Part shown: piece after piece, positions 1 through 53,272 of the stretch | Position numbering within the stretch: position 1 is the stretch's first letter | Layout of the letters: each line of letters starts with the position of its first letter | From: a phage | DNA length: 64,000 nt | Direction: 5' to 3' (one strand) | Assembly: GCA_037574385.1 (NCBI GenBank) | Contig: GCA_037574385.1_4529.1 | Notes under the pieces: generated by a model | The model's database searches: none | Told to the model about the DNA's origin: nothing | Seen by the model: the letters and a program-made list of their open reading frames with translations, nothing else | Made by a program: the position numbers and the translations under genes

Positions 1-1
1 A

Positions 2-2215: not shown

Positions 2216-2220
2216 TAAAA

Positions 2221-2234
2221 GGGCCTTCGGGCCC
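2221..2234 (+). promoter_or_regulatory. intercistronic RNA hairpin GGGCC-UUCG-GGCCC between 37 and 38
   Basis: Perfect 5-bp GC stem with UUCG tetraloop, then U5 and GGAGG-N5-ATG of gene 38. Confidence 0.5.
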
Positions 2235-2245
2235 TGGAGGTTTTT

Positions 2246-3025: not shown

Positions 3026-3043
3026 ACGATAATACCTCTCAAT

Positions 3044-3051
3044 TATAAATA
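3044..3051 (+). promoter_or_regulatory. late promoter TATAAATA upstream of t
   Basis: Exact TATAAATA ~20 nt upstream of the holin ATG; consensus of T4 gp55-dependent late promoters. Confidence 0.6.
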
Positions 3052-3070
3052 TTGATAAATGGGAGGTAAT

Positions 3071-5864: not shown

Positions 5865-6497
5865 TCACAGTACGTTAGTTACAAGGGTAATGATTTCTTT
5901 GGACACATTAGGGAAGTCAATGTAAGTATATTTACCACCGATCTTAATCTTAACATCATTTTCAAGAGAAGTAAACAGCTTTGATTCAGCTTCTGACATG
6001 TTGTATGCAAAGATTCTAAGAGCGCCATCTCGTCGAATTTCAATTTGGCGAATACCTAGAACTCGTTTTGCAAATCGAACTTCCAAGTTACTACGGTTTT
6101 CACCAATTTCTTTAACTTCAACTTTATCTTTAATATTTTCAAAAACAAAGTTTGCTAATTCATGCATTTCAGGAGTAACTCCACGTGCTTTTCTAGTGTT
6201 ACGTTTCTGAAGAAGTTCTGGAGCATTTTCTTGAGCAAATAGGTCTGCAGCTTTTTGGATAATATCCATTGCTTCGCCGGTTGCCACAAGTCCATCACCG
6301 GATTTTTCGACTAAACCTTTCTTAATCAATACACCAATGTTAGAGTTAACAACTGATGCGTTGTATTCTGCTTCCAGAGCTTCACGGACATTGGCAGCAG
6401 TGGTGAAGTTGTTCTTAATGATATAAACCATTATTGCCGCAGTTTTTTCATTCAGAGCGTTTTCAGAAGCTTTGATGATGTAAGTAACTTTAGACAT
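5865..6497 (-). CDS. motA: middle-promoter transcriptional activator MotA
   Basis: 210 aa; MSKVTYIIKAS...NSNIGVLIKKGLVEKSGDGL...AQENAPELL matches T4 MotA. Confidence 0.9.
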   Translation of the reverse strand: MSKVTYIIKASENALNEKTAAIMVYIIKNNFTTAANVREALEAEYNASVVNSNIGVLIKKGLVEKSGDGLVATGEAMDIIQKAADLFAQENAPELLQKRNTRKARGVTPEMHELANFVFENIKDKVEVKEIGENRSNLEVRFAKRVLGIRQIEIRRDGALRIFAYNMSEAESKLFTSLENDVKIKIGGKYTYIDFPNVSKEIITLVTNVL

Positions 6498-6594
6498 TTT
6501 ATTTCTCCAATTTGGTTGTTTTGTTTTGATAGGTCTATAATATCACGTTTGAAGCACGTGTAAACTGTTTTATGAGAAAAAAAAATGCACAAAA

Positions 6595-6610
6595 GGGAGC
6601 TTCGGCTCCC
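6595..6610 (-). terminator. rho-independent terminator after gene 52
   Basis: GGGAGC/GCTCCC stem; on minus strand followed by UUUUGUGCAUUUUUUUUU. Confidence 0.6.
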
Positions 6611-6686
6611 TAATCGTGATTGTCCAACCAATACAGCCAAATCACTAGTGCAGCTATTGCACCGAGAAATCCTAAGGCTAAGGCAC

Positions 6687-8012
6687 TCAAAGTGCCTCCA
6701 AGTCTTTAGTGTACTCTGTCACAACATCGGTAGACTTCCAATACTCATTTTCTTCTTTCTTAGCTTTAGCTTCTTCTGCTAGTTTACGTGCTTCATCGGA
6801 AGTGATATGGAAGATGTTAAGACCTACCAGTTTATCAACATGTTCTTTATACATTTCGATTTGTGCTAGCTCTTCAGTCAAAGCTTTACGAGTCTTGCCC
6901 TGAATCACAATTTCACCACTGATAACTTTTTTGATGAAGTGTGCCTTAGCAAAAGCAAGTTTAAATGCTTTTTCAGATTCAAGGATTTTGTTGTCAATAC
7001 GTTTCTGAACGTAAGTCTTACGGACTTCAACAAAATCTTTGATTAAGTCTACTACATTATCGTAGACCGCTAATTTACCTTTTTCATTAATCACTGTGAT
7101 GTTTTGTGAACGACGTTCGATGAGACTAAAATCTTTCATGATTTTTTCATGACGTAGCTCTTCATCGTCTGGAAGCGAGTACTCTTTACGGAACTTCACC
7201 TTAAACCCAAATCCATGTTCACCACAATCATCTTCCCATGAGATTAGACCTTTATCTTCTAATGGGTCAAGAACCTTACTCACATACGTTTCACGGTCGA
7301 ATTTATATGGGATTTCAGTTATCTGCATTTGAGTACGAGATGTGAACTTATATGTTCCGTGAATCTCATAACGCCCATCAACTTCATGTACTTCACCACG
7401 GAATTCCGGGAATTCAACTTTTGGCTTAGTGACATTTTTACCTTGAAGAGCTTGTAATACAGCCTTTTTGACTGATTTAAAACTATGAGGCAGAATATTT
7501 GTTGCATAACCGGTTGCAATACCGGAGACACCATTCAAAAGAACTGTCGGAATAATAGGAAGATAGAATTTTGGTGGAATATGTTCTTTATCTTCATGAG
7601 TTGGAGCATATTCGGTATCTTTATAGACATTATAGAAATTTTTGCTTACACGAGCAAAAATATAACGAGATGCCGCAGCTTTTTGGACTGTTCTAGAACC
7701 AAAGTTGCCTTGGCCATCTAACAGTGGATAGTTGTTGTTCCATGTGTTAGCCATTAATGCACCTGCATCTTGTGCAGAAGATTCACCATGGTGATAACCT
7801 AAATCTGCAACACCACCCGCAATTGACGCAAGTTTATGAAATTTTTCTTTATTACCACGAGCCAAATCTAACGCACGATGGACCACAAAACGTTGAACCG
7901 GCTTAAATCCATCAATCATGTTTGGGATTGCACGGTTTTCAACGGTGTACATCGCATATGCTAAGGCTTCGTTATCAATAATACTTTTTAGATTACGAGA
8001 ATTCAATTGCAT
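6687..8012 (-). CDS. 52: DNA topoisomerase II medium subunit gp52 (GyrA-like)
   Basis: 441 aa with GyrA/ParC-like cleavage-core sequence; size and position match T4 gp52. Confidence 0.95.
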   Translation of the reverse strand: MQLNSRNLKSIIDNEALAYAMYTVENRAIPNMIDGFKPVQRFVVHRALDLARGNKEKFHKLASIAGGVADLGYHHGESSAQDAGALMANTWNNNYPLLDGQGNFGSRTVQKAAASRYIFARVSKNFYNVYKDTEYAPTHEDKEHIPPKFYLPIIPTVLLNGVSGIATGYATNILPHSFKSVKKAVLQALQGKNVTKPKVEFPEFRGEVHEVDGRYEIHGTYKFTSRTQMQITEIPYKFDRETYVSKVLDPLEDKGLISWEDDCGEHGFGFKVKFRKEYSLPDDEELRHEKIMKDFSLIERRSQNITVINEKGKLAVYDNVVDLIKDFVEVRKTYVQKRIDNKILESEKAFKLAFAKAHFIKKVISGEIVIQGKTRKALTEELAQIEMYKEHVDKLVGLNIFHITSDEARKLAEEAKAKKEENEYWKSTDVVTEYTKDLEAL

Positions 8013-8019: not shown

Positions 8020-8157
8020 CCATATTAATGAACGAATAACCATTATAACATCTGAAATGAAAAGCACTACTTGGATTAGTCCAAACATCACACCGTAGTA
8101 CAGAACCGTAAGCAACAACAAGAGCCCGAAGGCTCCTGTTAAGATTTTCTTAATCAT
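8020..8157 (-). CDS. possible small hydrophobic protein (~46 aa), below ORF-track threshold
   Basis: Hand translation MIKKILTGAFGLLLLLTVLYYGVMFGLIQVVLFISDVIMVIRSLIW; ATG overlaps upstream stop (TAATG). A GAGCC-UUCG-GGCUC hairpin lies inside it, so it may be spurious. Confidence 0.3.
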
Positions 8158-8802: not shown

Positions 8803-8840
8803 GCTAATTTCCTCAATTGATTAATGTTTTTGTAATCCAT

Positions 8841-8876
8841 GAGAGCATTATACTCTGCTCTCAAGAGTTTGTACAA
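8841..8876 (-). promoter_or_regulatory. early promoter with -10 inside a hairpin loop (copy 1 of a 36-nt repeat)
   Basis: Minus strand TGTACAAACTCTTGAGAGCAGAGTATAATGCTCTC: -35-like, 17-nt spacer, TATAAT; GAGAGCA/TGCTCTC stem flanks the -10. Near-identical copy at 53237-53272. Confidence 0.5.
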
Positions 8877-9593: not shown

Positions 9594-9661
9594 GATGTTA
9601 TCCTCTTTTAGATAGGACTACTGTATCATAGTCCTACTTAGTTGTAAACACTTTTATGAAA

Positions 9662-10282: not shown

Positions 10283-10493
10283 CTACCGGCGGGATTTCAA
10301 TAACAACTTCGTCGCATTCTAACCAGCCGTAGTGTGCATCACCAGGATGTTTTACCAATTTAGCACAATAAACTGATTTACACTTATGATGACCACGAAG
10401 ATTAGCAATTTTGGATTCTGATACGTCAAATGGATGAATCATAATTACCCCTAAAGAAAAAGGGGACCGAAGTCCCCAATTATTATTCTGCAA
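10155..10493 (-). CDS. hypothetical protein downstream of rIIB (start probably internal Met near 10442)
   Basis: ORF between rIIB and denB; track start overlaps rIIB; Cys/His-containing small protein. Confidence 0.4.
   Translation of the reverse strand: MQNNNWGLRSPFSLGVIMIHPFDVSESKIANLRGHHKCKSVYCAKLVKHPGDAHYGWLECDEVVIEIPPVDANYLEEGDRIYFGELHIRGIYGKDELGTIETEESSDIYPVE
10462..10477 (-). terminator. UUCG-tetraloop hairpin / terminator after rIIB
   Basis: Minus-strand RNA GGGGAC-UUCG-GUCCCC followed by UUUUUCUUU. Confidence 0.55.
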
Positions 10494-11418
10494 ACAATTC
10501 AGTAACGTCTGAAATTACTTCATAACGACAAGTACGCATCTTAGCATCACCATAGTCAACTGGGATGGATACAACATCACGTGGATGAACTTTAACCTTA
10601 ACAACTTTATCTGAGCTTGAACCAAAGTGGCGAATATAAGATTTAGCACAAACGTGGAGACCACGAGAACAGGTTTGAGTATCATCGTCGTTAACTCGAG
10701 TACGAGGCATTGAAACAACTTTACCTGGGGAGTTATCAAATGTACCACTATAGCAGTCTAAATAGTCCTTACGAACTACTTTCCACGCGTAGAAATGCCC
10801 ATCTTCAGTGATTTCAATATCATTTGCAACCAAGAAGTCGAATAAACGTTGTACAGCTTTTTCGCTCGGGTTTTCTAACAGGTTTTCAAGGAACGGCAGA
10901 TAGAATTTAAAGTCTTCGCCTTTTTCCATGGAATCAATAATACGATTAACCAGACCTGAACGAATTTCTATACCTTGATAAAATAAACTACCACCTTCAA
11001 TAGTAACATTACCGTCAACAAACTTAGTAATAGCTTTCTTGACGTTAATAAGTTCAACAGCTTTACTAAGGTTTCCTGCGACCAGATTAGCTTTAATTTC
11101 TTCAAAATTTGCATGACTTGATGGGGTCGCATTGTATGCTACGCGTCCTTCAATGATTGAAATAAATTTAGATGACGCGTTCCATACGATTTCTGGACGA
11201 TGTCCGCCGATAATAGGTTCATCATTTTCTGGGATCTGTTCTTCGTCTTCAAATTCAGCTGCTTTCTCTTCAGCTTTAAAATTCTTAACAATCTTACGAA
11301 GAGTATCTGTTGAAATGTCGAAGTAATCGGCAATTTCTTTACGAGTCCATTTGCCCGATTCAACCAGGCCGTAAGCTTCTAACTGTTCTTCTTGGGACAA
11401 GCATTTAATATTGTACAT
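10483..11418 (-). CDS. rIIB: rIIB protein
   Basis: 311 aa; N-terminal MYNIKCLSQEEQLEAYGLVESGKWTRKEIADYF... and overall length match T4 rIIB; directly downstream of rIIA. Confidence 0.9.
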   Translation of the reverse strand: MYNIKCLSQEEQLEAYGLVESGKWTRKEIADYFDISTDTLRKIVKNFKAEEKAAEFEDEEQIPENDEPIIGGHRPEIVWNASSKFISIIEGRVAYNATPSSHANFEEIKANLVAGNLSKAVELINVKKAITKFVDGNVTIEGGSLFYQGIEIRSGLVNRIIDSMEKGEDFKFYLPFLENLLENPSEKAVQRLFDFLVANDIEITEDGHFYAWKVVRKDYLDCYSGTFDNSPGKVVSMPRTRVNDDDTQTCSRGLHVCAKSYIRHFGSSSDKVVKVKVHPRDVVSIPVDYGDAKMRTCRYEVISDVTELFAE

Positions 11419-15073: not shown

Positions 15074-15091
15074 AAGCTCCCGAAGGAGCTT
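15074..15091 (-). terminator. UUCG-tetraloop hairpin / terminator after gene 39
   Basis: Minus-strand RNA AAGCUCC-UUCG-GGAGCUU followed by U-rich tract. Confidence 0.5.
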
Positions 15092-16907
15092 AGGACATCC
15101 ATTCTTTACGAAGTTCTGAATCATCACCCAACAACATTTCAAAGAGTTCTTTCCAATTTTCAGGAAGTTTAACTACGTCGTACACAGGGTTTTGAATCAT
15201 TTCACGATATTCTGACTTTTCAAGGGAGCCCAATCCCTTGATGTATCGAATACTATGCTTAGGCAGTGTATCTTTAGCTTCTTCATACTCAGCTACAGTA
15301 TAAAACCATTTTTGAGTTTTGCCGATTTGTGCAATAATTACAGGTGTTTTAACAAAGCGAATACGTCCTTGTTCAAACAATTCAGGCCAATTACTAAAGA
15401 AAGCAAGCAAAGCCGGATAGATACTTCCAAGACCGTCATGATCGGCATCGGTCATAATTGCAATATTACGATAGTTCGTATTCTCTGCCTTTTCACCAAG
15501 AATAAGACCTGTGATAGCACAGATATCAAAGAGCTCTTTGTTCTTCATCATATCGGCATATGACATACCCCAGCTATTCATCACCTTACCACGTAATGGG
15601 AATCCGCCGTGTAGTTCACGGTCACGAACATCAATGAGATATCCAATTGCCGAATCACCTTCTGTTAAAAACAATGTCGTATCTGCATCTTTACCGCATT
15701 GGTTAGCTTTAATATGCTTATGAACCTTAGCTTTAGTTGCCTTTTTAGCTGCTTTAGTTTCTGCAGCCTTTTCTGCTGCCAATTTACGAGCTAATGCTGC
15801 TTCAACAATAGGCATAATCAAGGCTTCGTTTTTAAGAAGTGCCTGAGCAATTTTCTTAGCATCTAATTGGATATGATTACGAATATCACCATACGTTGAC
15901 GTTAAACGTTCTTTAGTCTGAGAATCAAAACGCATGTTGCTCATGTCTCTAATAAACATCAACATTGTGAGACATTCTTTAACACGAGCTTTAGTGACTT
16001 CAATACCCTTATATTTCTTTTTAATACCCGGCAAAAGATGTTCGCAAATATCATCCATTACACATTCAACATGATGACCACCATTTTTAGTATGGATGTT
16101 ATTCACATAAGTTAAATGACGGAAGCCATCCGGTGATGTTGTGAATGCTATAGAGACTTTATCATTTTCTTGAATGATGTTATCTTCACCAAATTGTTTA
16201 GCAAATCGTTTAAAATTGCCATCAACCTTTTTACCATTAAATGTGAACTTGATATCAGGATAAACGACTGCCAATGTTTGAAGTCGGTCTAAAGTAATAT
16301 CTAAATAAATTTGAGATAAATTATGCTCTTCAAATGAAGTGAAATCAGGAGTGAAGATTACTTTAGTGCCTTTACCTTTAGATTTCTTAGAAGACCATGA
16401 TTTGTTTTCCATTCCGTTTGAACAGTTAACAGTGATTTCATTTTCGCCATCTGACGTGATGCCTGTAAACAACGTAGAGAAGATATTAGTTAAACTACTC
16501 CCGACGCCGTTCATACCACCTGTCTTGCGTTCAGAGTCGTCACCAAAGTTACCACCGGCCTTTGGAATAGTCCAGGCTGCTACAGGCCCAGGAATTTGTT
16601 CACCCGTTTGGTCGGTAACTAAACCTTGAGGAATACCACGTCCGTTATCTTCCACTGAAACTTGATTATTTTTAATTTGCACATCAATTTTATTTGCAAA
16701 CTTAAATGATGTACGAATAGCTTCATCAACCGAGTTGTCAATAATCTCATCGATTAATTTAACCAGACCAGGAACATATTCAACTTGTTGATATTTACCA
16801 AACAAAAAACGCTCATGTGCTTCTTTAGCTGAAGAACCAATATACATACCACTACGTTTCTTAATATGTTCTACATCTGACAGTACCTTAATTTCATTTT
16901 TAATCAT
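15090..16907 (-). CDS. 39: DNA topoisomerase II large subunit (GyrB-like), gp39 and gp60 as one uninterrupted ORF
   Basis: 605 aa: GHKL ATPase N-domain plus Toprim region; length equals T4 gp39 + gp60. Confidence 0.95.
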   Translation of the reverse strand: MIKNEIKVLSDVEHIKKRSGMYIGSSAKEAHERFLFGKYQQVEYVPGLVKLIDEIIDNSVDEAIRTSFKFANKIDVQIKNNQVSVEDNGRGIPQGLVTDQTGEQIPGPVAAWTIPKAGGNFGDDSERKTGGMNGVGSSLTNIFSTLFTGITSDGENEITVNCSNGMENKSWSSKKSKGKGTKVIFTPDFTSFEEHNLSQIYLDITLDRLQTLAVVYPDIKFTFNGKKVDGNFKRFAKQFGEDNIIQENDKVSIAFTTSPDGFRHLTYVNNIHTKNGGHHVECVMDDICEHLLPGIKKKYKGIEVTKARVKECLTMLMFIRDMSNMRFDSQTKERLTSTYGDIRNHIQLDAKKIAQALLKNEALIMPIVEAALARKLAAEKAAETKAAKKATKAKVHKHIKANQCGKDADTTLFLTEGDSAIGYLIDVRDRELHGGFPLRGKVMNSWGMSYADMMKNKELFDICAITGLILGEKAENTNYRNIAIMTDADHDGLGSIYPALLAFFSNWPELFEQGRIRFVKTPVIIAQIGKTQKWFYTVAEYEEAKDTLPKHSIRYIKGLGSLEKSEYREMIQNPVYDVVKLPENWKELFEMLLGDDSELRKEWMS

Positions 16908-16956
16908 GTTGTCTCCTCGTTATGAAGGTATTCTATCATCCGAAATCTAAAGCAAA

Positions 16957-16972
16957 AAGGGCCGAAGCCCTT
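16957..16972 (-). terminator. UUCG-tetraloop hairpin at 3' end of upstream gene
   Basis: Minus-strand RNA AAGGGC-UUCG-GCCCUU then U-rich. Confidence 0.45.
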
Positions 16973-21084: not shown

Positions 21085-22398
21085 TCAAATAAAATGGACG
21101 TCAAAACGACCACGAGTCGTGCCGACATACAATAACTGTTTAGCTAATTCTGAATCGGCATAATGGATACAAGGTGTATAAACAAAGGCTGTGTCAACAG
21201 ACATACCCTGAGCCTTATGGAAGGTTGATACTGGTAGTGCCTTCACCTTAGTGAACATACGTTTAGCATCCCAGAATTCGCTCCATGGAGCTTTACCACC
21301 TTTATTCCAGAATTTGTATGTTTCTGCAGTCTTAGCCAAAAACAAATTGAATTTATAAAGCTCTTCTTCAGAAGAAATAACCTTTATATCTTCGCGGATG
21401 TATTCTTCATCATCCCCATATGTTTCTACTGTAAGATTCCAGTATCGTATCATATACTCGCCAGAAACACCACGTGCTTTAACGAATGTAGACGTTTCTA
21501 CAGCATCTCGAATACGAACGAATTGCCCGTTATTGAAAAGCATTTCGGTCATATTTTTGCCATCTAGCTTATATGTCTTAGTAAATGGCTCTTGTAGAAC
21601 AATGACCTCGTCTTTAATAAATGGCTTTTCTGTTTCAAGAAGTTTTCGGCGAATAATTGAATTCAACTTATCCACCGACTTATTTGTGAATGCCATCATT
21701 CGATTTTCGAAAAGGTCTTCAGGAGTTTTAACGACGTTAAAATAGTTCATCATATACGATTTAAGGTCTGTATATCCATGAACACCGTGCCCATCAACTA
21801 CTTTATCATAAATCCATTTGCCATTACGAATATCGGTCGCAACATCAATAATTGGTGCATTGCTACGTTTAACTTCTGTAAGGTTGCATTGCACGAAGTC
21901 TTTGTGAGTGAAGAAAGGACTTAGATACGCAGTTGATTCGCCGGGGTCCACTGGACGAATCTGACATCGGTCACCAATTCCAATTACTGTACACCATTTA
22001 GGGATACTAGCTAACATTATTTTAAACAGAGAACGGTCACACATTGACGCTTCATCAAATAACAGTACACGACACAAGGCTAAGTCGGGAACCTTTTTCT
22101 GTTCAAATAATACGTTTTCTTCGTATGTAGTTGGGTTGATTTTAAGAATGCTATGAATAGTCGATGCTTCTTGTCCAGCAAGTTTGCTTAGAACCTTTTT
22201 AGCAGCGTGTGTTGGTGCTGCTAAAATAATACCTGATTCTCCAGAAGAAATAAGGGCTTCAACGATGAATCTAGTAAGGGTTGTTTTACCTGTACCCGCA
22301 GGTCCATTAATAGTTACGTGATGTTTCTTTTCTTTAATAGCTTTCATAACAACGTTGAAGGCGTTTTTCTGGCCTTCAGTCAAGTCATCAAATGTCAT
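21085..22398 (-). CDS. dda: Dda DNA helicase (SF1)
   Basis: 437 aa; Walker A INGPAGTGKTT; matches T4 Dda in length and order. Confidence 0.9.
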   Translation of the reverse strand: MTFDDLTEGQKNAFNVVMKAIKEKKHHVTINGPAGTGKTTLTRFIVEALISSGESGIILAAPTHAAKKVLSKLAGQEASTIHSILKINPTTYEENVLFEQKKVPDLALCRVLLFDEASMCDRSLFKIMLASIPKWCTVIGIGDRCQIRPVDPGESTAYLSPFFTHKDFVQCNLTEVKRSNAPIIDVATDIRNGKWIYDKVVDGHGVHGYTDLKSYMMNYFNVVKTPEDLFENRMMAFTNKSVDKLNSIIRRKLLETEKPFIKDEVIVLQEPFTKTYKLDGKNMTEMLFNNGQFVRIRDAVETSTFVKARGVSGEYMIRYWNLTVETYGDDEEYIREDIKVISSEEELYKFNLFLAKTAETYKFWNKGGKAPWSEFWDAKRMFTKVKALPVSTFHKAQGMSVDTAFVYTPCIHYADSELAKQLLYVGTTRGRFDVHFI

Positions 22399-25888: not shown

Positions 25889-25964
25889 ATTGTTCTCCTC
25901 TTGAGTAGGTAAGAATATCTTAACACAGTTTTTAGTGGTTGTAAACTCTAGAAACGAAAAAAAA

Positions 25965-25986
25965 AAGGAATCCCGAAGGATTCCTT
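25965..25986 (-). terminator. rho-independent terminator after soc
   Basis: Minus-strand RNA AAGGAAUCC-UUCG-GGAUUCCUU followed by U9. Confidence 0.7.
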
Positions 25987-25993: not shown

Positions 25994-26230
25994 TTAACCG
26001 CTTACTGGTGTAGGGGTAAACATTGCGGCGTTCTTAGTTTTCCAAGTTGCTGCATCAGAAACGACATCAGAATAAGCTGCCTTTTCTGATGGAAAGATTT
26101 GGTAATGAGAATCTGCAATCCGATGTTCGTTTGAATAAATCTCAAACGGAACAGAAACTTCCATACCTTTAACTTCTTTACCTTCACCAGCTGGATGCGT
26201 GAAGGTTTTGATATTAACGAAACCACCCAT
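25994..26230 (-). CDS. soc: small outer capsid protein Soc
   Basis: 78 aa; ...VNIKTF......KEV.GMEVSVPF.IYS..H.I...HYQIFPSEKAAYS.V... matches T4 Soc. Confidence 0.9.
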   Translation of the reverse strand: MGGFVNIKTFTHPAGEGKEVKGMEVSVPFEIYSNEHRIADSHYQIFPSEKAAYSDVVSDAATWKTKNAAMFTPTPVSG

Positions 26231-28380: not shown

Positions 28381-28419
28381 AGTATTCTCCAGAGGCCTTA
28401 AATTAATAAGGCCATCATA

Positions 28420-31797: not shown

Positions 31798-31863
31798 AAT
31801 GTTTTCCTCTTGGTTGGTGTAAGTACATCATATCATGCCTAGAGGAAGATGTAAACCCCGAAA

Positions 31864-31879
31864 GGAGACCGAAGTCTCC
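31864..31879 (-). terminator. UUCG-tetraloop hairpin after gene 41
   Basis: Minus-strand RNA GGAGAC-UUCG-GUCUCC; U-rich flank mainly on the plus strand. Confidence 0.45.
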
Positions 31880-31885
31880 TTTTTA

Positions 31886-33328
31886 TTAAAATTTTAACTC
31901 ATTGGCTAAGCTATCTAGGTCAGCACGTGTTGCTTTGGCTTTACCTACGCGTTCCGTACGATTCACCTCTGCCTGACGCATCTGAGCACCTGCGTTTTCA
32001 TTTACTGTGTTAGGTGTGTTCATGCCTTCTTGCTCAATCTCAACCCATTTCTGATTGCCTTTACGTACACCCATCAAGAACTTGTTCCACTTATTCTTAT
32101 CACCATATCGTGATTTGATTTGTTTGATAAGTTGTTGTTCAGCTTGTGCAAGTTCTTCAGTTTCAATTACGGCCAACATGAAATCTGCCGTTGCTGGTAA
32201 ACCTGCTGATTCTGCAATATCACTCATGTTCATGTCTGAAGCATCCCATGCTGCACGTCCTACTTGAGCTGCAGTCCATAGAACTGTTTCAGATTCTACT
32301 GCTAATGCACGAAGTTCTTCTGCAATAGCTTTAACTAATGTGTAACTATTTTCAGTGTAAACTCTGATACGACAAGACCCACAAATACCTAAGTAATCGA
32401 CTATAATTACAGACGGCACAAAGTTCTTCTTAAGTTTCAATTCATTAAGCAATGCACGGAATGTATTAGCATTAGCTCCACCAGTAGGATACTGTTTGAC
32501 TACTAAACGTCCTAATGTTGATTTTGAACGCCATTTTTCCATCTTGGCTTTATATTCAGCATAAGATACGTTACCATCATCGATATCATCGAGTGATACG
32601 TCAAGCATGTTTGCATCTATACGCTTAGCACAAACTTCTTCAGCCATTTCCATGGAAATATAAAGAACATTATGTCCTGTTTGAAGATAATCTGCAGCAA
32701 GTGAACAAAGGCCTAAAGATTTACCAACGTTAACACCAGCCATTAAAACGTTCAGTGTACCTGTTTCTGCGCCACCTTTGGTGATTTTATTAAGAATGTT
32801 TAATTTGAACGGGACCTTACGTGCTTTATTTAGATAAGAAAGCCAGCGTGCTTCATAGTCTTCCATCCAGTCATGTCCAACATAACTATCGAACGAAATT
32901 GAAAGTGCTTGACGCATAATATCAGGAATAGCTCCTACGTCAGGCATTTTCTTGTTACGTTGTTCTGGAGGTAGTTCAGCATTAGACTGAATCTCAATGA
33001 TTTTGGATGTAGCATTATACATCGCTTTTTGCTGGACATATTTCTCAGTTTCTTTAACCAACCATTCGTGGTCTTCAGGAGTATCAGCCAATTTTTCAAT
33101 TAGGTCTGAAGTTCCTTTATATTCGGCTTCAGTTAAAGAACTGTTATCTAAAGCCACCTTTAATGCATTGATGGATGGCATTGCATTATATTCGTTAACG
33201 TGGCTCTTTATAATTTTAAAGACATTTTTTGCCGGTCCACGCTCAAAATACTCAGAATCCATATAAGGCCAGACCTTAGAAAAATAAGCCTGGTCGTATA
33301 CGAGATGAGACAAAATAATTTCTACCAC
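31886..33328 (-). CDS. 41: replicative DNA helicase gp41 (DnaB-like)
   Basis: 480 aa; Walker A GVNVGKSLG; DnaB-family architecture; matches T4 gp41. Confidence 0.95.
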   Translation of the reverse strand: MVEIILSHLVYDQAYFSKVWPYMDSEYFERGPAKNVFKIIKSHVNEYNAMPSINALKVALDNSSLTEAEYKGTSDLIEKLADTPEDHEWLVKETEKYVQQKAMYNATSKIIEIQSNAELPPEQRNKKMPDVGAIPDIMRQALSISFDSYVGHDWMEDYEARWLSYLNKARKVPFKLNILNKITKGGAETGTLNVLMAGVNVGKSLGLCSLAADYLQTGHNVLYISMEMAEEVCAKRIDANMLDVSLDDIDDGNVSYAEYKAKMEKWRSKSTLGRLVVKQYPTGGANANTFRALLNELKLKKNFVPSVIIVDYLGICGSCRIRVYTENSYTLVKAIAEELRALAVESETVLWTAAQVGRAAWDASDMNMSDIAESAGLPATADFMLAVIETEELAQAEQQLIKQIKSRYGDKNKWNKFLMGVRKGNQKWVEIEQEGMNTPNTVNENAGAQMRQAEVNRTERVGKAKATRADLDSLANELKF

Positions 33329-33337: not shown

Positions 33338-33700
33338 TTAAAAGAATTTAAATTTTTTCTTGGTTCGTTCATTAAAAGCTTGTTGTACCTGCATTGTAAC
33401 ACATTTTTCAACATGCGGCGCAAGTTCTGCTTTTCTGTCCTGGTCAAGAACTGCAAAGTCCATTACGATTTTACCATCAACCCAATCTAGTTTTGTAATA
33501 TAGACTATATGATGGGAGCCGTCTTCAAGTGTAATCAGAATCTCTTGAATGACATTTTCCATTGCTGAACGGATAATTTTAAGAGATTCATTAAACACTC
33601 GTTCTTTGCGAATGTCTTCCCCTTCCGAAGAAGGGGATTCATCAACGATTTCTAGATTCAAATCATCGAGATTATTCATCGAAATCTTCCATTTCGTCAA
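33338..33700 (-). CDS. 40: gp40-like protein
   Basis: 120-aa ORF between uvsX and 41 as in T4. Confidence 0.6.
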   Translation of the reverse strand: MTKWKISMNNLDDLNLEIVDESPSSEGEDIRKERVFNESLKIIRSAMENVIQEILITLEDGSHHIVYITKLDWVDGKIVMDFAVLDQDRKAELAPHVEKCVTMQVQQAFNERTKKKFKFF

Positions 33701-34844
33701 GGTCGTTTTCTATATCTGCTGCAGATGGAGCATCAGAAGCTTTAACCGGAACTTTAGTTGTTGCTTTGCAATTAATAAGGTCGTTAACAGCGTCATCAAC
33801 TTCTTTAATAGAAGAGATAGCACCTAGTTTATATTTAGTTTCAATTGCATCTCGGAAAGGTTTGTGTTTAAACAACGGTCCCCAGAATTCTACACAATCA
33901 GTAGCTTTAGCACGCCATGATTTCTCTTCACGAATCATTTCGCCTGTTTCTTCGTCAAGGAATTCGCGAGCATACCACCCAGCTTTAGGCTTAACTACAA
34001 AACCAATTTCGGTTGCCATTTCTAGCAAGCCACTGAATGGGTCGATACCGCCATCAAAATTAACCGTGATCGGGAAAGTAGATTTCTCTTTAACTGTACG
34101 AGATTTTTCTGCTTTCAACGTGAAGTCATAACCGGTCAATTCTGTACCTTCTTTAACCTGACGTTTAGAGATAAAGAATACAGTGTTAGCAGAGTAAAGA
34201 ATACCTGTACCACCGCCCATAATCTCTTTAGGATATAGTCCGCCGATTTCCATTGCGGTATGGTTGATTGCAACACACGGAATATCTTTAATAGTCAGAT
34301 AAGGAGTCACAATGCGGAAAAGAGATTTAAGTGCCTTAGCACGAGACATATCACCTACGACTTTCTCGTTCAATGCATCTTCGGTTTCTTTCTTAGATGC
34401 AGTATTACCGATTGAATCGATAAAGATAATAACTTTATCACCGCGTTCAATTGCATCAAGCTGATTAGTCATATCAACTTTAAGTTGTTCGACAGACTGA
34501 ATTGGTGTATGAACTACACGGTCTAAATCAACACCCATTGAACGAAAATAAGATTCTGAAGCACCAAATTCCGAGTCATAAAACAAACAGATTGCATCTT
34601 TATATTTCTTCATATACGCTGCAACCATAGTCAGCCCAAACAATGTTTTAAAATGTTTAGAAGGTGCAGCAAAAATAGTCAAGCCTGATTGCAATCCTGC
34701 ATTCAGAGCACCACCTAGTGCAATATTCAACATCGGAATACGAGTAGGGACTTCATCACGATTATTAAACAGCTTAGACTTAGTCAAGTCTGCAGTCATT
34801 TTAGAAGTAGAAGCTTTAATCAGACGAGATTTTAAATCAGACAT
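33672..34844 (-). CDS. uvsX: UvsX recombinase (RecA-like)
   Basis: 390 aa RecA-fold ATPase with acidic C-terminal tail; matches T4 UvsX. Confidence 0.95.
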   Translation of the reverse strand: MSDLKSRLIKASTSKMTADLTKSKLFNNRDEVPTRIPMLNIALGGALNAGLQSGLTIFAAPSKHFKTLFGLTMVAAYMKKYKDAICLFYDSEFGASESYFRSMGVDLDRVVHTPIQSVEQLKVDMTNQLDAIERGDKVIIFIDSIGNTASKKETEDALNEKVVGDMSRAKALKSLFRIVTPYLTIKDIPCVAINHTAMEIGGLYPKEIMGGGTGILYSANTVFFISKRQVKEGTELTGYDFTLKAEKSRTVKEKSTFPITVNFDGGIDPFSGLLEMATEIGFVVKPKAGWYAREFLDEETGEMIREEKSWRAKATDCVEFWGPLFKHKPFRDAIETKYKLGAISSIKEVDDAVNDLINCKATTKVPVKASDAPSAADIENDLDEMEDFDE

Positions 34845-41533: not shown

Positions 41534-44245
41534 TCAAAAATCGAACATATCGAACAGAGATGCTTTCTTCTCGTAATCGAGTTTCGCTGCTGATGTGAAT
41601 CCTTCAAGTGGTTTAATAAATGTCTTCTCAAGGAGAACCGTGTAGTCCATCCAATGAAGTACGTCGTCTTTAATTAAATCTGTGATTTCAGTACCAGAAG
41701 GCCATGCGATACATTTATCACCGAATGGGTTTCCTTCACGTAAAGGCAGAACATATACTTTTTCACCTTCTACAACTTGTGGTGCATCAATATTACCTTT
41801 GATAGCCCGGTTATACGTTAGAATTCCACGAATATGGAACGGGCATTTGGGACCCGGGAATCCACCTACATCATATTTAGCAATGTTATTCGCAGAAGAT
41901 ACCGACGCGATGCTAATATAATTCAATTGACGGAATTCTTTTTCAAACTCTTTAAAATACTCTTGTAATGATTCTTCACCTTCCTGAAGCATACGACGAA
42001 TACATTCCTTAAGAGCTTTCTGTACCGCTTTAGGAGTTGAAGATTTCTGTGTTTCGAGACCCATGATTTTGAGTTTAGGCTTAGCGTAACGAGTACCTTC
42101 CATATCCCACACGTTTAATGCATAACGTTTCTTACCAGTCCAAAATCCGCCAATACCTTTAGAACCGAGCGGAGGACCAGCGATAGCTTCTCGGTCCATG
42201 AACATCAAATGTTGCTTATTATTCATGTATTCGCACATTTCACGGAAACCTCTATCAATAGCAGGTTCCATACGTTCACGAGCGAACTTATCTAAGAAGT
42301 CTACCCAATGGTTGGTATCACGGAATTTAGATTCACCAACCTTATCAATAATTTTATCTGCAGATACATAAATGGAGTCTGTATCACCGTATAGAACGAA
42401 AGCTTCACCTTCTGTACCACAAACTTCGTTCAGATATTCATTAACTTTACGTTCAATCCACTGTAAAGCCATTTGCCCGAATGTTGTGATTGCAGTAGCA
42501 TTACGCAAATCATAATAACGGAACCAAACGTTGCCAAGTGCACCATAAAGTGAGTTGATAAGCAATTTACGGTTAATCTGTGCAGTCATACCTGCAACTT
42601 CAGTACGTTGAGCTCTAAACAACATTTCATTAAGAGATTTAGCAGACAACTTTTTAATCTTTTCTTTAATCTCGTCAGTGAAGTCGAAACGATAATCAAC
42701 ATCTAATGGTTCGTCAACAGAAAGATTAGGATTATGCAATGCCTCTTTAATTATTTCACCATTACGTTGAGCTGCAAGCATGTAACCTTTATGTTCTTTA
42801 CGCTGATTAAAGACCTTAGTGATTTCAGTTGGAACTACACCATCACGGTCTTTATAATACATCATGCCATTAGGAGAGCAACTGTACACATCTGAAGGAC
42901 GTTCAGCAACAGCGTTAATATAATCATGTAATGGAGCTACTTTAAACGTTCCTGCTATTGTTTCTGGGCTAATATTCACTTGGCGAATAATACTTGGATA
43001 CAGAGATGTAAGGTCGAAACTCATTACATATTTGTATCGATTTGGAATAGGTTCCTTAACAAAAGCGCCTGGGTAAGGTTGAACCGGGTGAGAACGACCT
43101 TGTGGAATCACCTTGTTCTGCTCTTTAAGGCTATTAAAAATAATAGCATCCCATGTTTTAATTGGGCTAAACACAGATTGAATCTGTATCTTAGCATAAT
43201 AACCCATGTCCAAACTCAAGTTGATGAACTGACGCTTAGCATCAATTTGCAATACACGATACACGTCGATAATGTTATAAGAAATATATCGTTGGTGATT
43301 GCTTTCACGAAGCTTAGAAATAGGGCCGTCATATTTCAGTTTACCAACGTTCAATTCAAATTCTGAAATGTAATCCAGAGAATACGACGGTTGATTGGTA
43401 AAAGAGAATTTTTTGTAAAGGTCAATGTAATCAAGAACAGAGATACCGAACAATGTAATGATTTCACGAGAACCATACATGTTTTCGATAACTTTAACAT
43501 GAGTTTTACGATGTGGTGATAAACGTTTCGCAGTAGATTCGCCAAAAATATTCTTGATTCGGTTATACACATATGGAATATCAAATGACTCAACGTTCCA
43601 TCCGGTTAAAATGACAGGAGTTTTCTGTTGCCAGAAGTTGAGATATTCCATCAACAATTCTTTTTCGTTATCGAACGGCATATAAATGATTTTATCAATA
43701 ATTTCGGATGGAACTTCATCACCACCTTGTTCTTGAAGCTTAGCAGCGATTTCAATAGACCATTCTTCTACATTACCATATGGAGAATTCAATAGATCAA
43801 ATACGTAAAACCTGTCGTCAATTGAGTCATAATGAGTGATAGCATCAATCGGATGTTTTGCTTGTGACGGCTCAGGGAACCCATCCGGAGATGTTACTTC
43901 GATGTCGAAGTTAGCCACACGAATTTTTGTATGGTCGTATTTGATTTCATAGTTATAAGTGTCAGACAAATACGCCAATTTGAAATCGTCCATGCCAAGT
44001 GCTTCAAGTCCGATATCTTCCATGCGTTTAATCCATTGGGAGGCATCACGCATATTAGCGAACAACTTACGAGTACACGACTTACCGTAGATATCGAAAT
44101 ATTTCGTAGCCTGACTTTCTGGACAATGAGCAAACAGTGATGGTTTATATTCTACTTCACGAGTACGTTCACGGCCATTAGAATCGATGTAACGTTCAAA
44201 AATTGAATCACCGATCTGTTCAACCGTTAAGTAAAATTCTTTCAT
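41534..44245 (-). CDS. 43: DNA polymerase gp43 (family B)
   Basis: 903 aa; exonuclease motifs, YGDTDS polymerase motif; N-terminus MKEFYLTVEQIGDSIFERYIDSNGRERTREVEYKPSLFAH... matches my memory of RB69 gp43. Confidence 0.97.
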   Translation of the reverse strand: MKEFYLTVEQIGDSIFERYIDSNGRERTREVEYKPSLFAHCPESQATKYFDIYGKSCTRKLFANMRDASQWIKRMEDIGLEALGMDDFKLAYLSDTYNYEIKYDHTKIRVANFDIEVTSPDGFPEPSQAKHPIDAITHYDSIDDRFYVFDLLNSPYGNVEEWSIEIAAKLQEQGGDEVPSEIIDKIIYMPFDNEKELLMEYLNFWQQKTPVILTGWNVESFDIPYVYNRIKNIFGESTAKRLSPHRKTHVKVIENMYGSREIITLFGISVLDYIDLYKKFSFTNQPSYSLDYISEFELNVGKLKYDGPISKLRESNHQRYISYNIIDVYRVLQIDAKRQFINLSLDMGYYAKIQIQSVFSPIKTWDAIIFNSLKEQNKVIPQGRSHPVQPYPGAFVKEPIPNRYKYVMSFDLTSLYPSIIRQVNISPETIAGTFKVAPLHDYINAVAERPSDVYSCSPNGMMYYKDRDGVVPTEITKVFNQRKEHKGYMLAAQRNGEIIKEALHNPNLSVDEPLDVDYRFDFTDEIKEKIKKLSAKSLNEMLFRAQRTEVAGMTAQINRKLLINSLYGALGNVWFRYYDLRNATAITTFGQMALQWIERKVNEYLNEVCGTEGEAFVLYGDTDSIYVSADKIIDKVGESKFRDTNHWVDFLDKFARERMEPAIDRGFREMCEYMNNKQHLMFMDREAIAGPPLGSKGIGGFWTGKKRYALNVWDMEGTRYAKPKLKIMGLETQKSSTPKAVQKALKECIRRMLQEGEESLQEYFKEFEKEFRQLNYISIASVSSANNIAKYDVGGFPGPKCPFHIRGILTYNRAIKGNIDAPQVVEGEKVYVLPLREGNPFGDKCIAWPSGTEITDLIKDDVLHWMDYTVLLEKTFIKPLEGFTSAAKLDYEKKASLFDMFDF

Positions 44246-44291
44246 TTAATTTCCTTTAGACGAGTTATTGTCTTTTGTTTGTTGATGAACT

Positions 44292-44323
44292 TATTATACT
44301 CCAAATGGGACCGAAGTCCCATT
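44292..44323 (-). promoter_or_regulatory. UUCG hairpin immediately followed by -10 TATAAT between regA and 43
   Basis: Minus strand CAAUGGGAC-UUCG-GUCCCAUU then TGGAGTATAAT. Confidence 0.5.
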
Positions 44324-44326: not shown

Positions 44327-44704
44327 TTAATTACCAATTGTATATTTTGCTTTCAAAGTCCAGTCATCTTTCTGTTTAAAAGAGATAACTCGGAAGTTAT
44401 TAGTCAGGCTAAATAGATCTTCACGAGCAGAGTCTTCAATAACAATCAATCCCCAGTCTTCAAGCAACTGAGCAATCGAATCACGTCGCTGATAGTCTTC
44501 GCCGTCAATATCAACCTGGCGTCCATCCATACGCAACATTTCTTTAAAGTGGACAATATAGTACTTACCTTGCTTTTGGAGGATATGACAAGACTGGTAA
44601 AGGACTTTATCTTTGTTATTAGCGATGCCCATACGGGTCAAAGTCTCTTTGACTTTCAGAAAATCTTCAGGGTTCTTCAATTTAATTTCAATCATTTTTA
44701 CCAT
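44327..44704 (-). CDS. regA: translational repressor RegA
   Basis: 125 aa; ...[51 protein letters not shown]...[12 protein letters not shown]...KYTIGN matches T4 RegA. Confidence 0.95.
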
Positions 44705-46225: not shown

Positions 46226-46300
46226 GTAATTTTCCTCATTATCATTAAACTGGAGGATTTCTCCTCCATAATCGTATCACATTAAACTTAAAGCTTTGAC

Positions 46301-47657: not shown

Positions 47658-47699
47658 TTAATTTGATGTGGTCATTATAACCACATCGTGTTAAAGCGT

Positions 47700-51024: not shown

Positions 51025-51071
51025 ATGTTTTCCTCATTAGTTGGTTCATTTTATCATCCAGAATATAAAGC

Positions 51072-51100
51072 AAAAAAAAAGGAAGCACTAGGCTTCCTTT
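51072..51100 (-). terminator. rho-independent terminator at the alpha-gt locus
   Basis: GGAAGC/GCTTCC stem with 5-nt loop; minus strand followed by U9. Confidence 0.65.
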
Positions 51101-53243: not shown

Positions 53244-53272
53244 TATACTCTGCTCTCAAGAGTCTGTACACT
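53237..53272 (-). promoter_or_regulatory. early promoter with -10 inside a hairpin loop (copy 2 of the 36-nt repeat)
   Basis: GAGAGCATTATACTCTGCTCTCAAGAGTCTGTACA, one mismatch to copy at 8841-8876. Confidence 0.5.

Follow-up and report, generated by a model that had tools for sequence, protein, structure and literature searches.

C(UUCG)G mRNA hairpins of the T4 'CUUCGG' class in a Mosigvirus genome: putative terminators and candidate mRNA-end elements

Introduction

What does a short, GC-rich stem capped by UUCG do directly behind a gene, and why does it recur so often in one phage genome? The question is raised by the hairpin at positions 25965-25986 of the window, that is, of the whole 64,000-nucleotide stretch of phage DNA analysed here (GenBank assembly GCA_037574385.1, contig GCA_037574385.1_4529.1). 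A preliminary description had placed this hairpin in a family of UUCG-loop hairpins marking gene and operon ends, some of them intrinsic terminators and the others RNA-stability or processing elements. The window phage is a Mosigvirus (RB69-like, T4-like), its best matches being Mosigvirus genomes. The C(UUCG)G hairpins of T4, a class of unusual thermal stability, are said to have been described for the first time by Tuerk et al. in 1988, in PNAS 85:1364. In the summary of Tuerk 1988 that PMC8948821 gives, CUUCGG hairpins are especially abundant in the intergenic regions of T4 and stop reverse transcriptase, and the class is defined by complementary flanks of 2-8 or more nt and a mostly intergenic location. 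Nine hairpins of the window carry the loop of this class, UUCG on the RNA strand; those at 6594 (CGAA) and 51078 (CUAGU) are relatives of the class, not members. Here we argue that the family very probably consists of C(UUCG)G mRNA hairpins of the T4 'CUUCGG' class, acting as terminators where a U-run follows the stem and as mRNA-end or attenuator elements where none does.

Results

Number, strand and placement of the hairpins

All ten hairpins named in the preliminary description are present, each with the stem-loop given for it, and in a folding-energy check each folds as named (-11 to -16.5 kcal/mol). Its count of at least nine UUCG sites also stands, since nine carry the loop on the mRNA strand, although only eight had been listed and the one at 33618-33637 had been missed (Table 1). 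Counting perfect stems of at least 5 bp around a TTCG tetraloop, we found 10 C(UUCG)G hairpins in the window, against a mean of 0.75 and a maximum of 5 in 200 dinucleotide shuffles; when any of the 256 loop types was counted in one shuffle, the highest count was 8, so none reached 10. As a plain tetramer, TTCG shows no enrichment (530 observed vs 519 expected). The recurrence of the loop, which had been remarked upon from the letters, is borne out by the shuffles; it is a textbook T-even property and not something new. The perfect stems are 5-9 bp long, the closing pair is C-G (5' C, 3' G) in 10/10 hairpins, and UUCG lies on the sense (mRNA) strand in 9/10. In the Turner model, UUCG is only about 0.9 kcal/mol better than the inverted CGAA loop. 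Single-sequence dinucleotide-shuffle z-scores are weak for short GC clusters of this kind, only -1 to -1.4 for 2220 and 10462, and the relevant control for chance is the count-based shuffle test. Nowhere in the window did an Rfam family reach its gathering score.

Non-coding DNA makes up 7% of the window and holds seven of the nine sense UUCG hairpins, which start 0-7 nt after a stop codon (n=7); at three hairpins the stop codon lies inside the stem. The earlier statement that the hairpins stand at gene ends therefore holds for these seven sites, directly after the stop, and fails for 8122-8135, in codons 8-12 of the gene 52.1 homologue. Two sites, in genes 52.1 and 40, are not strictly gene-end: there the hairpin falls within the opening codons of the following gene, whose 5' coding part overlaps the preceding stop.

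Table 1. Hairpins of the window, with positions, strand, RNA sequence of stem-loop-stem, folding energy (kcal/mol) and adjoining features
Site	Position	Strand	Stem-loop-stem	Energy	Adjoining features
After soc homologue (25965)	25965-25986; U8 tract 25957-25964	-	AAGGAAUCC-UUCG-GGAUUCCUU	-12.7	9-bp stem; U8
After rIIB (10462)	10453..10477	-	GGGGAC-UUCG-GUCCCC		then UUUUUCUUU; terminator-like
Putative terminator with non-UUCG loop (51078)	51069..51100 (hairpin 51078-51100)	-	AAAGGAAGC-CUAGU-GCUUCCUUU		then U6
Upstream of gene 39 (16957)	16948..16972	-	AAGGGC-UUCG-GCCCUU		stop codon UAA part of stem
Gene 52 (+ motA.1-like mini-ORF) / motA, CGAA loop (6594)	6577..6611	-	AGGGAGC-CGAA-GCUCCCU		then UUUGUGCAUUUUUUUUU; terminator-like
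After gene 41 (31861)	31861..31882	-	AAAGGAGAC-UUCG-GUCUCCUUU		directly past stop TAATAA; tail CGGGGUUUAC, U-tract not usable
regA / gene 43 (44304)	44304..44323	-	AAUGGGAC-UUCG-GUCCCAUU		then UGGAGUAUAAU; no U-tract
Gene 37 / gene 38 (2220)	2220..2235	+	AGGGCC-UUCG-GGCCCU		late transcript; no proximal U-tract
End of unsplit gene 39 (15074)	15074..15091	-	AAGCUCC-UUCG-GGAGCUU		stop codon inside stem; tail CAUUUUAAUUUU
5' coding end of gene 40 (33618)	33618..33637	-	UCCCCUUC-UUCG-GAAGGGGA	-16.1	no U-tract
Gene 52.1 homologue (8116)	8116..8141 (perfect core 8122-8135)	-	UAACAGGAGCC-UUCG-GGCUCUUGUUG	-15.9	codons 6-14; tail UUGUUGUU

Hairpins followed by a U-tract

All 11 hairpins have a G+C-rich stem and a loop of 3-8 nt on the transcribed strand downstream of a gene. 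About five or more U in eight, starting 0-2 nt from the stem, follow those at 25965, 10462, 51078 and 16957 (the last counted on UUUGCUUU); the hairpins at 6594 (UUUGUGCA, then U9), 8116 (U-rich tail) and 15074 (weak U-tract) are borderline, and those at 2220, 31861, 33618 and 44304 have no such tract. By this measure only the first four are classed as terminators. The 25965 hairpin starts 7 nt 3' of the stop of the soc homologue (ORF 25994-26230), with an early-type promoter beyond it (-35 GTTTAC at 25941-25946), and its orthologue was present in 23/23 loci checked, in four stem variants and with U5-10. After rIIB, the hairpin begins 5 nt past the stop (TAATAA). At the site described earlier as 51072-51100 there is indeed a hairpin with a loop other than UUCG, but the hairpin proper is 51078-51100 and the remainder is its U-tract (U6, plus 3 U in the stem); a MotA box, TGCTTTA (51066-51072), follows immediately as in a middle-promoter-like module, and the homologue in Mosigvirus PhAPEC2 has a different stem and a UUCG loop. 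The tail of 16957 (UUUGCUUUA) is at once a weak U-tract and a MotA box, with TAGAAT 12 nt further on.

The hairpin between gene 52 and motA had been set apart, correctly, as a relative with another loop (6595-6610): CGAA is on the mRNA strand and UUCG on the opposite one. An early-type promoter lies beyond it (-35 GTTTAC at 6560-6565). In the related loci L067, L096 and L070 this stem is capped by UUCG in sense orientation, and the CGAA form recurs in DCP548 and PhAPEC2, two other Mosigvirus genomes whose agreement rules out an assembly error. As this natural site works with either loop, UUCG identity appears to be preferred, not essential. Homologues of six window sites are annotated in PhAPEC2 as ARNold-predicted terminators, those of 25965, 51078, 16957, 6594, 15074 and 31861 among them.

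Hairpins without a usable U-tract

Four nucleotides past the 31861 stem starts the -35 element (GTTTAC, 31851-31856) of an early-type promoter. Orthologues of this hairpin show seven different stems with one loop, followed by strong U-tracts in L007-12 and L017-18 and a weak one in the window, and it is absent from T4. The hairpin between regA and gene 43 follows the regA stop by 3 nt and precedes the gene 43 start by 60 nt; across genera its stem comes in four variants, and it remains beside gene 43 where an extra ORF has been inserted after regA. At 37/38 the hairpin, 4 nt past the gene 37 stop (TAATAA), lies directly 5' of the gene 38 SD (GGAGG), a position conserved across genera with a spacing of 0-3 nt; the loops there are mostly UUCG, with UUAG, CUCG, UACG and UUUG as variants, and a U-run directly follows the stem in 1 of 14 distinct hairpin sequences. 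At 15074, where the SD of the next gene lies 17 nt downstream, UUCG is confined to the window phage, L068 and PhAPEC2; the hairpins that other genera have in this place are different ones. The tails of 33618 and 44304 are purine-rich.

Hairpins embedded in coding sequence

The gene 40 hairpin, 37 nt past the uvsX stop, encodes SPSSEGE. Its T4 counterpart, UCCCCCUC-UUCG-GAGGGGGA, differs from that of the window by compensating synonymous changes, and in every lineage the start of gene 40 holds a strong hairpin (among the best 0.3-5% of windows of 90 nt), with stems and loops that differ. RNAalifold predicted no structure from a MAFFT alignment of this gene 40 5' region, in which the hairpins had been put out of register by the divergence of the coding sequence; the region was assessed by per-locus hairpin ranking instead. 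Our literature searches found no usable description of the gene 40 hairpin. In the case of gene 52.1, the ATG of the homologue overlaps the stop of the preceding gene (ac), and the corresponding stretch of 52.1 folds into other hairpins in T4 and in further lineages. Codon or amino-acid constraints could contribute to both embedded hairpins, the 52.1 segment being a GC-rich Ala/Leu/Gly membrane segment.

Comparison across related phages

In 64 loci from enterobacterial T4-like phages, we counted 111 distinct UUCG hairpins in sense orientation and 24 on the other strand, some of the 24 being sense sites of late genes (37/38, for example). As anchors for related loci, gp52 and uvsX worked, and rIIA gave only 3 loci. 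All 111 of the sense hairpins close with a C-G pair, which is also invariant in two site alignments (A1 and A2; 17/17 and 25/25). The rIIB site, with a hairpin in 35/41 loci, has 14 distinct stems among 18 distinct hairpin sequences; double changes affect 5/6 stem pairs, while the loop is retained and the C-G pair that closes it never changes. Because a hairpin search selected the sequences for the covariation tables, their 98% pairing is partly by construction. The U-tract differs by lineage: behind the rIIB and gene 41 hairpins, some lineages have a strong U-run and others have none. An exact-pattern scan of IMG/VR with one 21-mer gave a sense vs opposite ratio of at least 120:18, which we use as a general orientation ratio only, since the patterns matched many unrelated contigs. 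The T4 genome has 20 C(UUCG)G hairpins, UUCG being the commonest T4 tetraloop, and two unrelated T4 loci (15303 and 130340) share an identical hairpin and U-tract sequence.

Indels occur beside some of the hairpins, namely the extra ORF after regA and, in L067, an HNH gene that follows gene 39. Among the 11 sites (+/-40 nt), the longest shared strings consist of the core, the U-run or the Mot box only; for comparison, strings shared by random 100-nt pairs average 6.8, with a maximum of 12. Downstream of 6594, 25965 and 31861 comes GTTTAC with a -10-like box at 16-17 nt spacing, a PeSL-type layout (TTTACW-N17-TAYWAT), and 16957 and 51078 are followed by TGCTTTA, 12 nt and TAGAAT or TAAAAT, a PmSL-type layout. 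The structures, their excess over chance, their placement by strand and stop codon, and their conservation with compensating stem changes are all read directly from the sequences.

Discussion

The proposal of two classes, terminators and other RNA elements, was already made in the preliminary description, and both the anatomy and the comparative data fit it. The hairpins at 25965, 10462, 51078, 16957 and 6594 look like intrinsic terminators and are putative ones, whereas those at 2220, 15074, 31861, 33618 and 44304 would be mRNA-end or attenuator hairpins, a split made by inspection of the U-tract alone. Since ARNold calls the homologues of 15074 and 31861 terminators, the class without a U-tract may include weak terminators. 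How efficiently the hairpins terminate and what they do to RNA stability we infer from these features; the literature searched yielded no Term-seq or 3'-end mapping of T4-like phages. That a hairpin persists while its U-tract comes and goes points to a role independent of termination.

How might such elements work? The UUCG loop with its C-G closing pair would allow a stem of 5-9 bp to fold fast and firmly in the short intergenic spaces of an AT-rich genome and, where there is no intergenic space, the hairpin lies among the opening codons of the gene that follows. A stem with an immediate U-run would be the structural half of a Rho-independent terminator, expected to stop or attenuate the host RNA polymerase, and with an early or MotA-dependent promoter within 30 nt, as at 4/5 of the putative terminators, the modules may insulate neighbouring transcription units. 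Hairpins without a U-run most likely exert their effect on RNA that is already complete: as barriers to 3'-to-5' exonucleases they could fix and stabilise the upstream message at its 3' end once read-through and endonucleolytic cutting have taken place, and they might also shield the 5' end of the downstream message as a protective stem, or serve as weak attenuators.

Other readings have to be weighed against this one. All the hairpins might be terminators or attenuators of graded strength, with no separate role in RNA stability. This is possible, if doubtful, and it gains from the ARNold-based annotation in PhAPEC2, which covers the homologues of 15074 and 31861, and from the U-rich tails at short distance at 2220 (GGAGGUUUUU), 15074 and 8122; even weak U-tracts can end some transcripts, the T4 mobE terminator stopping about 30% of them (PMC2988022). 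However, a hairpin conserved without its U-tract is not expected of a pure terminator: the 37/38 stem abuts the SD in nearly all lineages and hardly ever has a U-run directly after it, some lineages have CCUCCUAAUGAGG after the rIIB stem, and the tails of 33618 and 44304 are rich in purines. Selection on translation, by which the hairpins without a U-tract would shield the downstream RBS from structures further upstream or keep ribosomes from sliding and re-initiating between adjacent cistrons, is improbable. The 2220 hairpin does end exactly at the gene 38 SD, with its short spacing kept across genera, 10462 and 15074 lie within 9-17 nt of the next SD, and RNA structure at T4 translation initiation regions is a known layer of control (PMC3014915, PMC2988022); yet the downstream SD and start codon are outside the stems, 44304 is far from the start of gene 43, a promoter separates 25965, 31861, 6594, 16957 and 51078 from the next gene, and neither the U-tracts nor the coding-embedded hairpins would be explained.

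Less probable still is selection at the level of DNA, for PeSL-type linkers in recombination and module shuffling or for cruciform or protein-binding sites. Five hairpins are joined to early or MotA-type promoters as in PeSL/PmSL cassettes (PMC4122927), indels adjoin hairpins after regA and, in L067, after gene 39, the gene 41 hairpin has been lost in T4, and the T4 loci 15303 and 130340 are identical in hairpin and U-tract, all of which would suit this reading. A palindrome that acts as DNA, on the other hand, has no cause to favour either loop orientation, whereas the hairpins are strongly biased: 9:1 in the window, 111:24 in the related loci and at least 120:18 as the general ratio in IMG/VR; stems that differ among sites and flanks that are not shared leave little homology for recombination, and the PeSL papers themselves give the stem-loop a terminator role. 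We reject a DNA-only palindrome as the primary explanation on the orientation bias and the unshared flanks. There is next to no prospect that the family is an artefact of chance or composition, or a set of copies of one mobile, REP/MITE-like repeat. Short GC clusters in AT-rich DNA do fold well even when shuffled, which is reflected in the z-scores of 2220 and 10462, and some cores coincide (GGGACTTCGGTCCC at both 10462 and 44304), but the 10 hairpins where 0.75 are expected and no shuffle exceeds 5, the sense-strand bias, the stop-codon placement and the positions conserved with compensating changes all speak against it. A mobile repeat is rejected, its supposed copies sharing nothing beyond core, U-tract or Mot box, and chance is refuted, as far as sequence analysis can do so, by the shuffle counts and the rIIB covariation.

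Within the preferred reading, that of C(UUCG)G mRNA hairpins with two roles, one extension can be offered only tentatively: the hairpin, and not the terminator, may be the conserved unit, in a code of position-specific 'punctuation' that would govern segmental mRNA stability or attenuation and place constraints on coding sequence. If so, a strong stem-loop would be retained just past particular stops regardless of what comes next; overlapping genes would keep it within the first 10-20 codons downstream, as in gene 40 after uvsX and in 52.1 after ac; the embedded hairpins would be maintained across genera by compensating, partly synonymous substitutions; and the two loop orientations found at the gene 52-motA terminator, UUCG and CGAA, would serve as a natural experiment.

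It is to these phage hairpins that the UUCG tetraloop owes its place as a model for the study of RNA folding. As the hairpins are the classic T4 class known since 1988, the finding is correct but ordinary, and its main value is for annotation: with them, the boundaries of transcripts and cistrons can be marked in an RB69-like genome, as can the places where terminator-promoter modules would insulate early, middle and late units. The covarying hairpins embedded in genes 40 and 52.1 and the loop inversion at 6594 are small extensions of known biology, not a new kind of system.

The window hairpins resemble several known systems and differ from each of them. Like the REP elements of E. coli, those without a U-tract are stable and intercistronic and could block 3' exonucleases and set differential stability; by this analogy we propose a REP-like 3' stabiliser role for 2220, 15074, 31861 and 44304. 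However, REP elements are a conserved repeat family of 35-40 nt, whereas the phage hairpins are 14-22 nt long and have in common the loop and closing pair only, with no shared flanks. In PeSL and PmSL, as at five window sites, a stem-loop is followed by a promoter and then by SD and start codon, and such stem-loop and promoter cassettes act as terminators (PMC2839356, PMC4122927). What defines a PeSL is the entire cassette of about 100 bp together with its association with indels in hyperplastic regions (Arbiol et al. 2010, PMC2839356; Comeau et al. 2014, PMC4122927); in contrast, 2220, 10462, 15074, 44304, 33618 and 8116 stand among core genes without an attached promoter. Palindromes overlapping -10 boxes, another PeSL subclass, are also present in the window. 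The hairpins at 25965, 10462, 51078, 16957 and 6594 fit the intrinsic terminators of E. coli and T4, while about half of the window hairpins differ from these in having no U-tract. In T4, such terminators consist of a stem rich in GC, a loop of 4 nt and a poly(U) tail right behind it, and some are found in the 5' coding ends of genes (PMC2988022); the coding placement of two of them is known as well for the T4 mobE and segF terminators (PMC2988022).

The closest likeness is with the C(UUCG)G hairpins of T4, which have the same UUCG loop, C-G closing pair, short G+C stem, location on the transcribed strand and mostly intercistronic position. Four of these (after soc, in gene 40, at regA-43 and upstream of gene 39) are positional orthologues of window sites, with compensating stem changes. 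T4 differs in being a Tequatrovirus and not a Mosigvirus, in lacking, or having in degraded form, the UUCG hairpins that the window has after genes 41, 39, rIIB and 37, and in having hairpins that the window lacks, such as the gene 60 bypass hairpin and one in stp. Taken together, these likenesses and differences mean that the UUCG hairpins of the window are the class of Tuerk et al. 1988, already known and rediscovered here in an RB69-like phage.

Phage and gene order

The phage is a T4-like myovirus. Of the 801 phage records that a 12-kb piece matches, Shigella phage ESh27 (98%) is the best hit; it is a Mosigvirus, i.e. RB69-like, and so are DCP548 and PhAPEC2, which match the region of the window at 6.6 kb. 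The gene order is that of T4, the late genes being followed on the minus strand by the early/middle genes asiA, motA, 52, rIIB, rIIA, 39, dexA, dda, soc, 41, 40, uvsX, 43, regA, 62, 44, 45, 46, 47, 55, nrdG, nrdD and 49. Gene 39 of the window has neither the gene 60 split, nor mobA, nor the 50-nt translational bypass; the T4 bypass hairpin, GAUAGCC-UUCG-GGCUAUC (T4 2837-2854), is itself one of T4's UUCG hairpins. In the closest relative (L067/L096) an HNH-like ORF lies right after gene 39, where the window has a hairpin.

Genes, hairpins and hairpin-associated promoters in the window (hairpins by start; strand of the TTCG loop)
Feature	Position	Strand	Tail or detail
Late genes 37, 38, t	1-3730	+	
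TTCG hairpin	2220	+	no proximal U-run; GGAGGUUUUU
motA	5865-6497	-	
-35 GTTTAC after hairpin 6594	6560-6565		
TTCG hairpin	6594	+	less regular U-tract; UUUGUGCA, then U9
Gene 52	6687-8012	-	
Full 52.1 hairpin	8116-8141	-	codons 6-14, UUCG loop, small membrane protein
TTCG hairpin	8122	-	
TTCG hairpin	10462	-	strong or fair U-tract; UUUUUCUUU
rIIB	10483-11418	-	
TTCG hairpin	15074	-	no proximal U-run; CAUUUUAA
Gene 39	15090-16907	-	unsplit, single 605-codon ORF
TTCG hairpin	16957	-	strong or fair U-tract; UUUGCUUU
-35 GTTTAC after hairpin 25965	25941-25946		
TTCG hairpin	25965	-	strong or fair U-tract; U8
soc	25994-26230	-	
-35 GTTTAC after hairpin 31861	31851-31856		
TTCG hairpin	31861	-	no proximal U-run; CGGGGUUUAC
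Gene 41	31886-33328	-	
TTCG hairpin	33618	-	no proximal U-run; AGACAUUC
uvsX	33672-34844	-	
Gene 43	41534-44245	-	
TTCG hairpin	44304	-	no proximal U-run; UGGAGUAU
regA	44327-44704	-	
CUAGU hairpin	51078		strong or fair U-tract; U6, following three paired U

Excess and placement of the hairpins

A mechanical scan of the whole window, which required a perfect stem of 5 bp or more and a 4-nt loop, returned ten hairpins with the loop TTCG, all ten closed by a C-G pair; 200 dinucleotide-preserving shuffles gave a mean of 0.75 and a maximum of 5, and the highest count for any of the 256 loop sequences in one shuffle was 8. The TTCG tetramer itself is not enriched (530 observed vs 519 expected), so TTCG is in excess specifically as a hairpin loop. 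All eleven sites, 51078 included, fold into their stem-loops with energies of -11 to -16.5 kcal/mol. Because GC clusters this short yield modest single-sequence z-scores, the count-based shuffle test is the better control. Every hairpin named in the preliminary description was found where it had been placed; it spoke of at least nine but listed eight UUCG sites on the sense strand, overlooking the ninth, 33618-33637. Rfam holds no family for any of these hairpins.

UUCG lies on the locally transcribed strand in 9/10 TTCG hairpins. The intergenic ones start 0-7 nt past a stop codon, which falls inside the stem at 15074, 16957 and 6594, and tandem TAATAA stands just before the stem at 2220, 10462 and 31861. 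A crude ORF map makes ~93% of the window coding, yet the remaining 7% holds seven of the nine sense UUCG hairpins. Of the two exceptions, 8122 falls within the gene 52.1 homologue (MIKKILTGAFGLLLLL...), at its codons 8-12, and 33618 lies 37 nt into gene 40. At both places the downstream ATG overlaps the previous stop (as TAATG before 52.1 and as ATGAATAA between uvsX and gene 40), leaving no intergenic room for a hairpin.

Different hairpins, e.g. GGGCUA-UUCAU-UAGCCC, occupy the same place in 52.1 of T4 and other lineages; a membrane segment with codons rich in Ala, Leu and Gly may alone favour a hairpin here. In gene 40 a strong structure is kept in every lineage examined (loci L005-L027 and L064; T4 22329-22348), 34-61 nt past the uvsX stop and in the top 0.3-5% of each locus's 90-nt windows, while its stem varies by lineage and its loop is UUCG, UUUG, CUAGU, ACUAU, GAAG, GAAA or UAAG. 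A tentative and rather doubtful reading would make the hairpin a punctuation mark, specific to its position and kept even inside coding sequence.

Conservation across T4-like relatives

In T4, where no tetraloop is commoner than TTCG, 17 of the 20 perfect C(UUCG)G hairpins lie on the early-gene strand. Four T4 sites are orthologous in position to sites of the window but differ in stem (T4 stem first): AAGGACUCC and AAGGAAUCC after soc, AAGGGGC and AAUGGGAC between regA and 43, AAAGGCC and AAGGGC upstream of gene 39, and UCCCCCUC and UCCCCUUC in gene 40, where the changes are compensating and synonymous (Pro and Glu).

We compared 62 loci anchored on uvsX and 38 anchored on gp52. Downstream of gene 41, seven different stems carry one loop, with a U-tract that is weak in the window and strong in some lineages; T4 has no hairpin there, its promoter adjoining the stop codon directly. 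All 23 loci have a terminator hairpin after soc, with a UUCG loop in 22 and always with U5-10 behind it. The site downstream of rIIB has a hairpin in 35/41 loci, with 14 distinct stems among 18 distinct hairpin sequences, loops that are mainly UUCG and now and then UUUG, UCCG, GCAA or AUAU, and a U-tract whose presence varies by lineage. The gene 37/38 hairpin, immediately 5' of the Shine-Dalgarno, is kept across genera and very rarely followed by a U-tract. Both-sided changes affect five of six stem pairs in the rIIB set, the closing C-G being invariant, and the pooled 41, soc and 37 set agrees; as these sequences were picked by hairpin search, the large share of paired cells is in part a product of that choice, and the weight rests on the variety of stems at fixed positions.

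When enterobacterial T4-like loci are pooled, the early-gene sense strand has 507 distinct GC-containing tetraloop hairpins, of which 111, every one closed by C-G, have the loop UUCG; the opposite strand, which includes late-gene sense sites, has 24. Distant T4-like contigs, mostly environmental and 51-58% identical in uvsX, give 1/67, whence the habit belongs to the T-even group proper and not to every T4-like virus.

Several loci (L008-L010, L012, L018, L021, L024, L026) have an extra ORF between regA and 43, starting at the regA stop (TAATATG...), despite which the UUCG hairpin and the following UGGAGUAUAAU remain with gene 43. T4 carries an identical hairpin plus U-tract (AGGACTCC TTCG GGAGTCCT TTTTT) at two unrelated loci, 15303-15324 and 130340-130359, and the same pattern recurs within one genome at L014 17066 and 18661; such duplicates may reflect convergence or the copying of terminator cassettes.

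At 6594-6611 the mRNA strand reads AGGGAGC-CGAA-GCUCCCU in the window, DCP548 and PhAPEC2, whereas L067, L096 (phiE142-like) and L070, with a metagenomic contig among them, have the same stem but a UUCG loop. This is a natural loop-inversion polymorphism, of the kind that template switching inside a palindrome should produce. In IMG/VR (loci L110-L207) at least 120 contigs contain the exact 21-mer of this terminator with UUCG, TAGGGAGCTTCGGCTCCCTTT, and 18 its CGAA twin; among the matches listed, most contigs are unrelated to T4-like phages, which suggests that the same minimal terminator arose or spread widely.

Tails, promoters and the selected unit

An early-type promoter starts 4-28 nt past hairpins 6594, 25965 and 31861, and the U-tracts after 16957 and 51078 are overlapped by a MotA box (TGCTTTA), 12 nt beyond which stands a -10-like box. 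The PhAPEC2 record annotates the homologues of 6594, 15074, 16957, 25965, 31861 and 51078 as ARNold-predicted terminators.

The strand bias, the fixed closing pair, the placement at stop codons and the compensating stem changes together show that selection acts on an RNA hairpin and not on a DNA palindrome. Nor are the hairpins copies of one repeat, for the eleven sites have no common flanking sequence. The proposed division into U-tract terminators and hairpins of another kind fits the tails, both types being seen. Sites with a U-tract have, to judge from their sequence, the anatomy of an intrinsic terminator, and the persistence of the hairpin across lineages without a U-tract argues for a role independent of termination. 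Such hairpins, we infer in line with the customary view, would act as a barrier to 3' exonucleases, defining and stabilising message ends, and weak attenuation is possible in addition. The observation is thus confirmed, and its interpretation supported as far as sequence analysis reaches.

Other palindromes

Further stable non-coding palindromes lie at 8840-8863, 53235-53258, 47665-47687, 9612-9637, 53534-53558, 63829-63856 and 28394-28413. Two are near-identical copies (TGAGAGCAGAGTATAATGCTCTC), the loop at 47665 reads GCTTTA, 11 nt, TATAAT, and several are visibly centred on promoter -10 boxes, resembling the subclass of PeSL (promoter-early stem-loop) cassettes with a stem-loop over the -10 box (PMC2839356). 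At 44258-44273 (-), AGAC-AAUAACUC-GUCU closely precedes the gene 43 Shine-Dalgarno and lies 31 nt downstream from hairpin 44304; its 8-nt loop is that of the T4/RB69 DNA polymerase translational operator (PMC3014915). Between genes 45 and 44, a GNRA-loop hairpin at 46251-46268 (-), UGGAGGA-GAAA-UCCUCCA (-10.7 kcal/mol), holds a Shine-Dalgarno-like GGAGG in its 5' arm.

Comparison with known systems

The finding is already known: the window hairpins are the phenomenon of Tuerk et al. 1988, by whose account, as summarised in PMC8948821, T4 is especially rich in C(UUCG)G hairpins, which lie mainly between cistrons, have unusual stability and halt reverse transcriptase. T4 terminators are described as GC-rich stems with a 4-nt loop and poly(U); mobE and segF hold known examples within their 5' coding ends, with ~30% termination in mobE (PMC2988022). 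The layout of stem-loop plus promoter matches the PeSL and PmSL (promoter-middle) cassettes of T4-like phages, whose stem-loops terminated transcription in a reporter assay (PMC2839356; PMC4122927).
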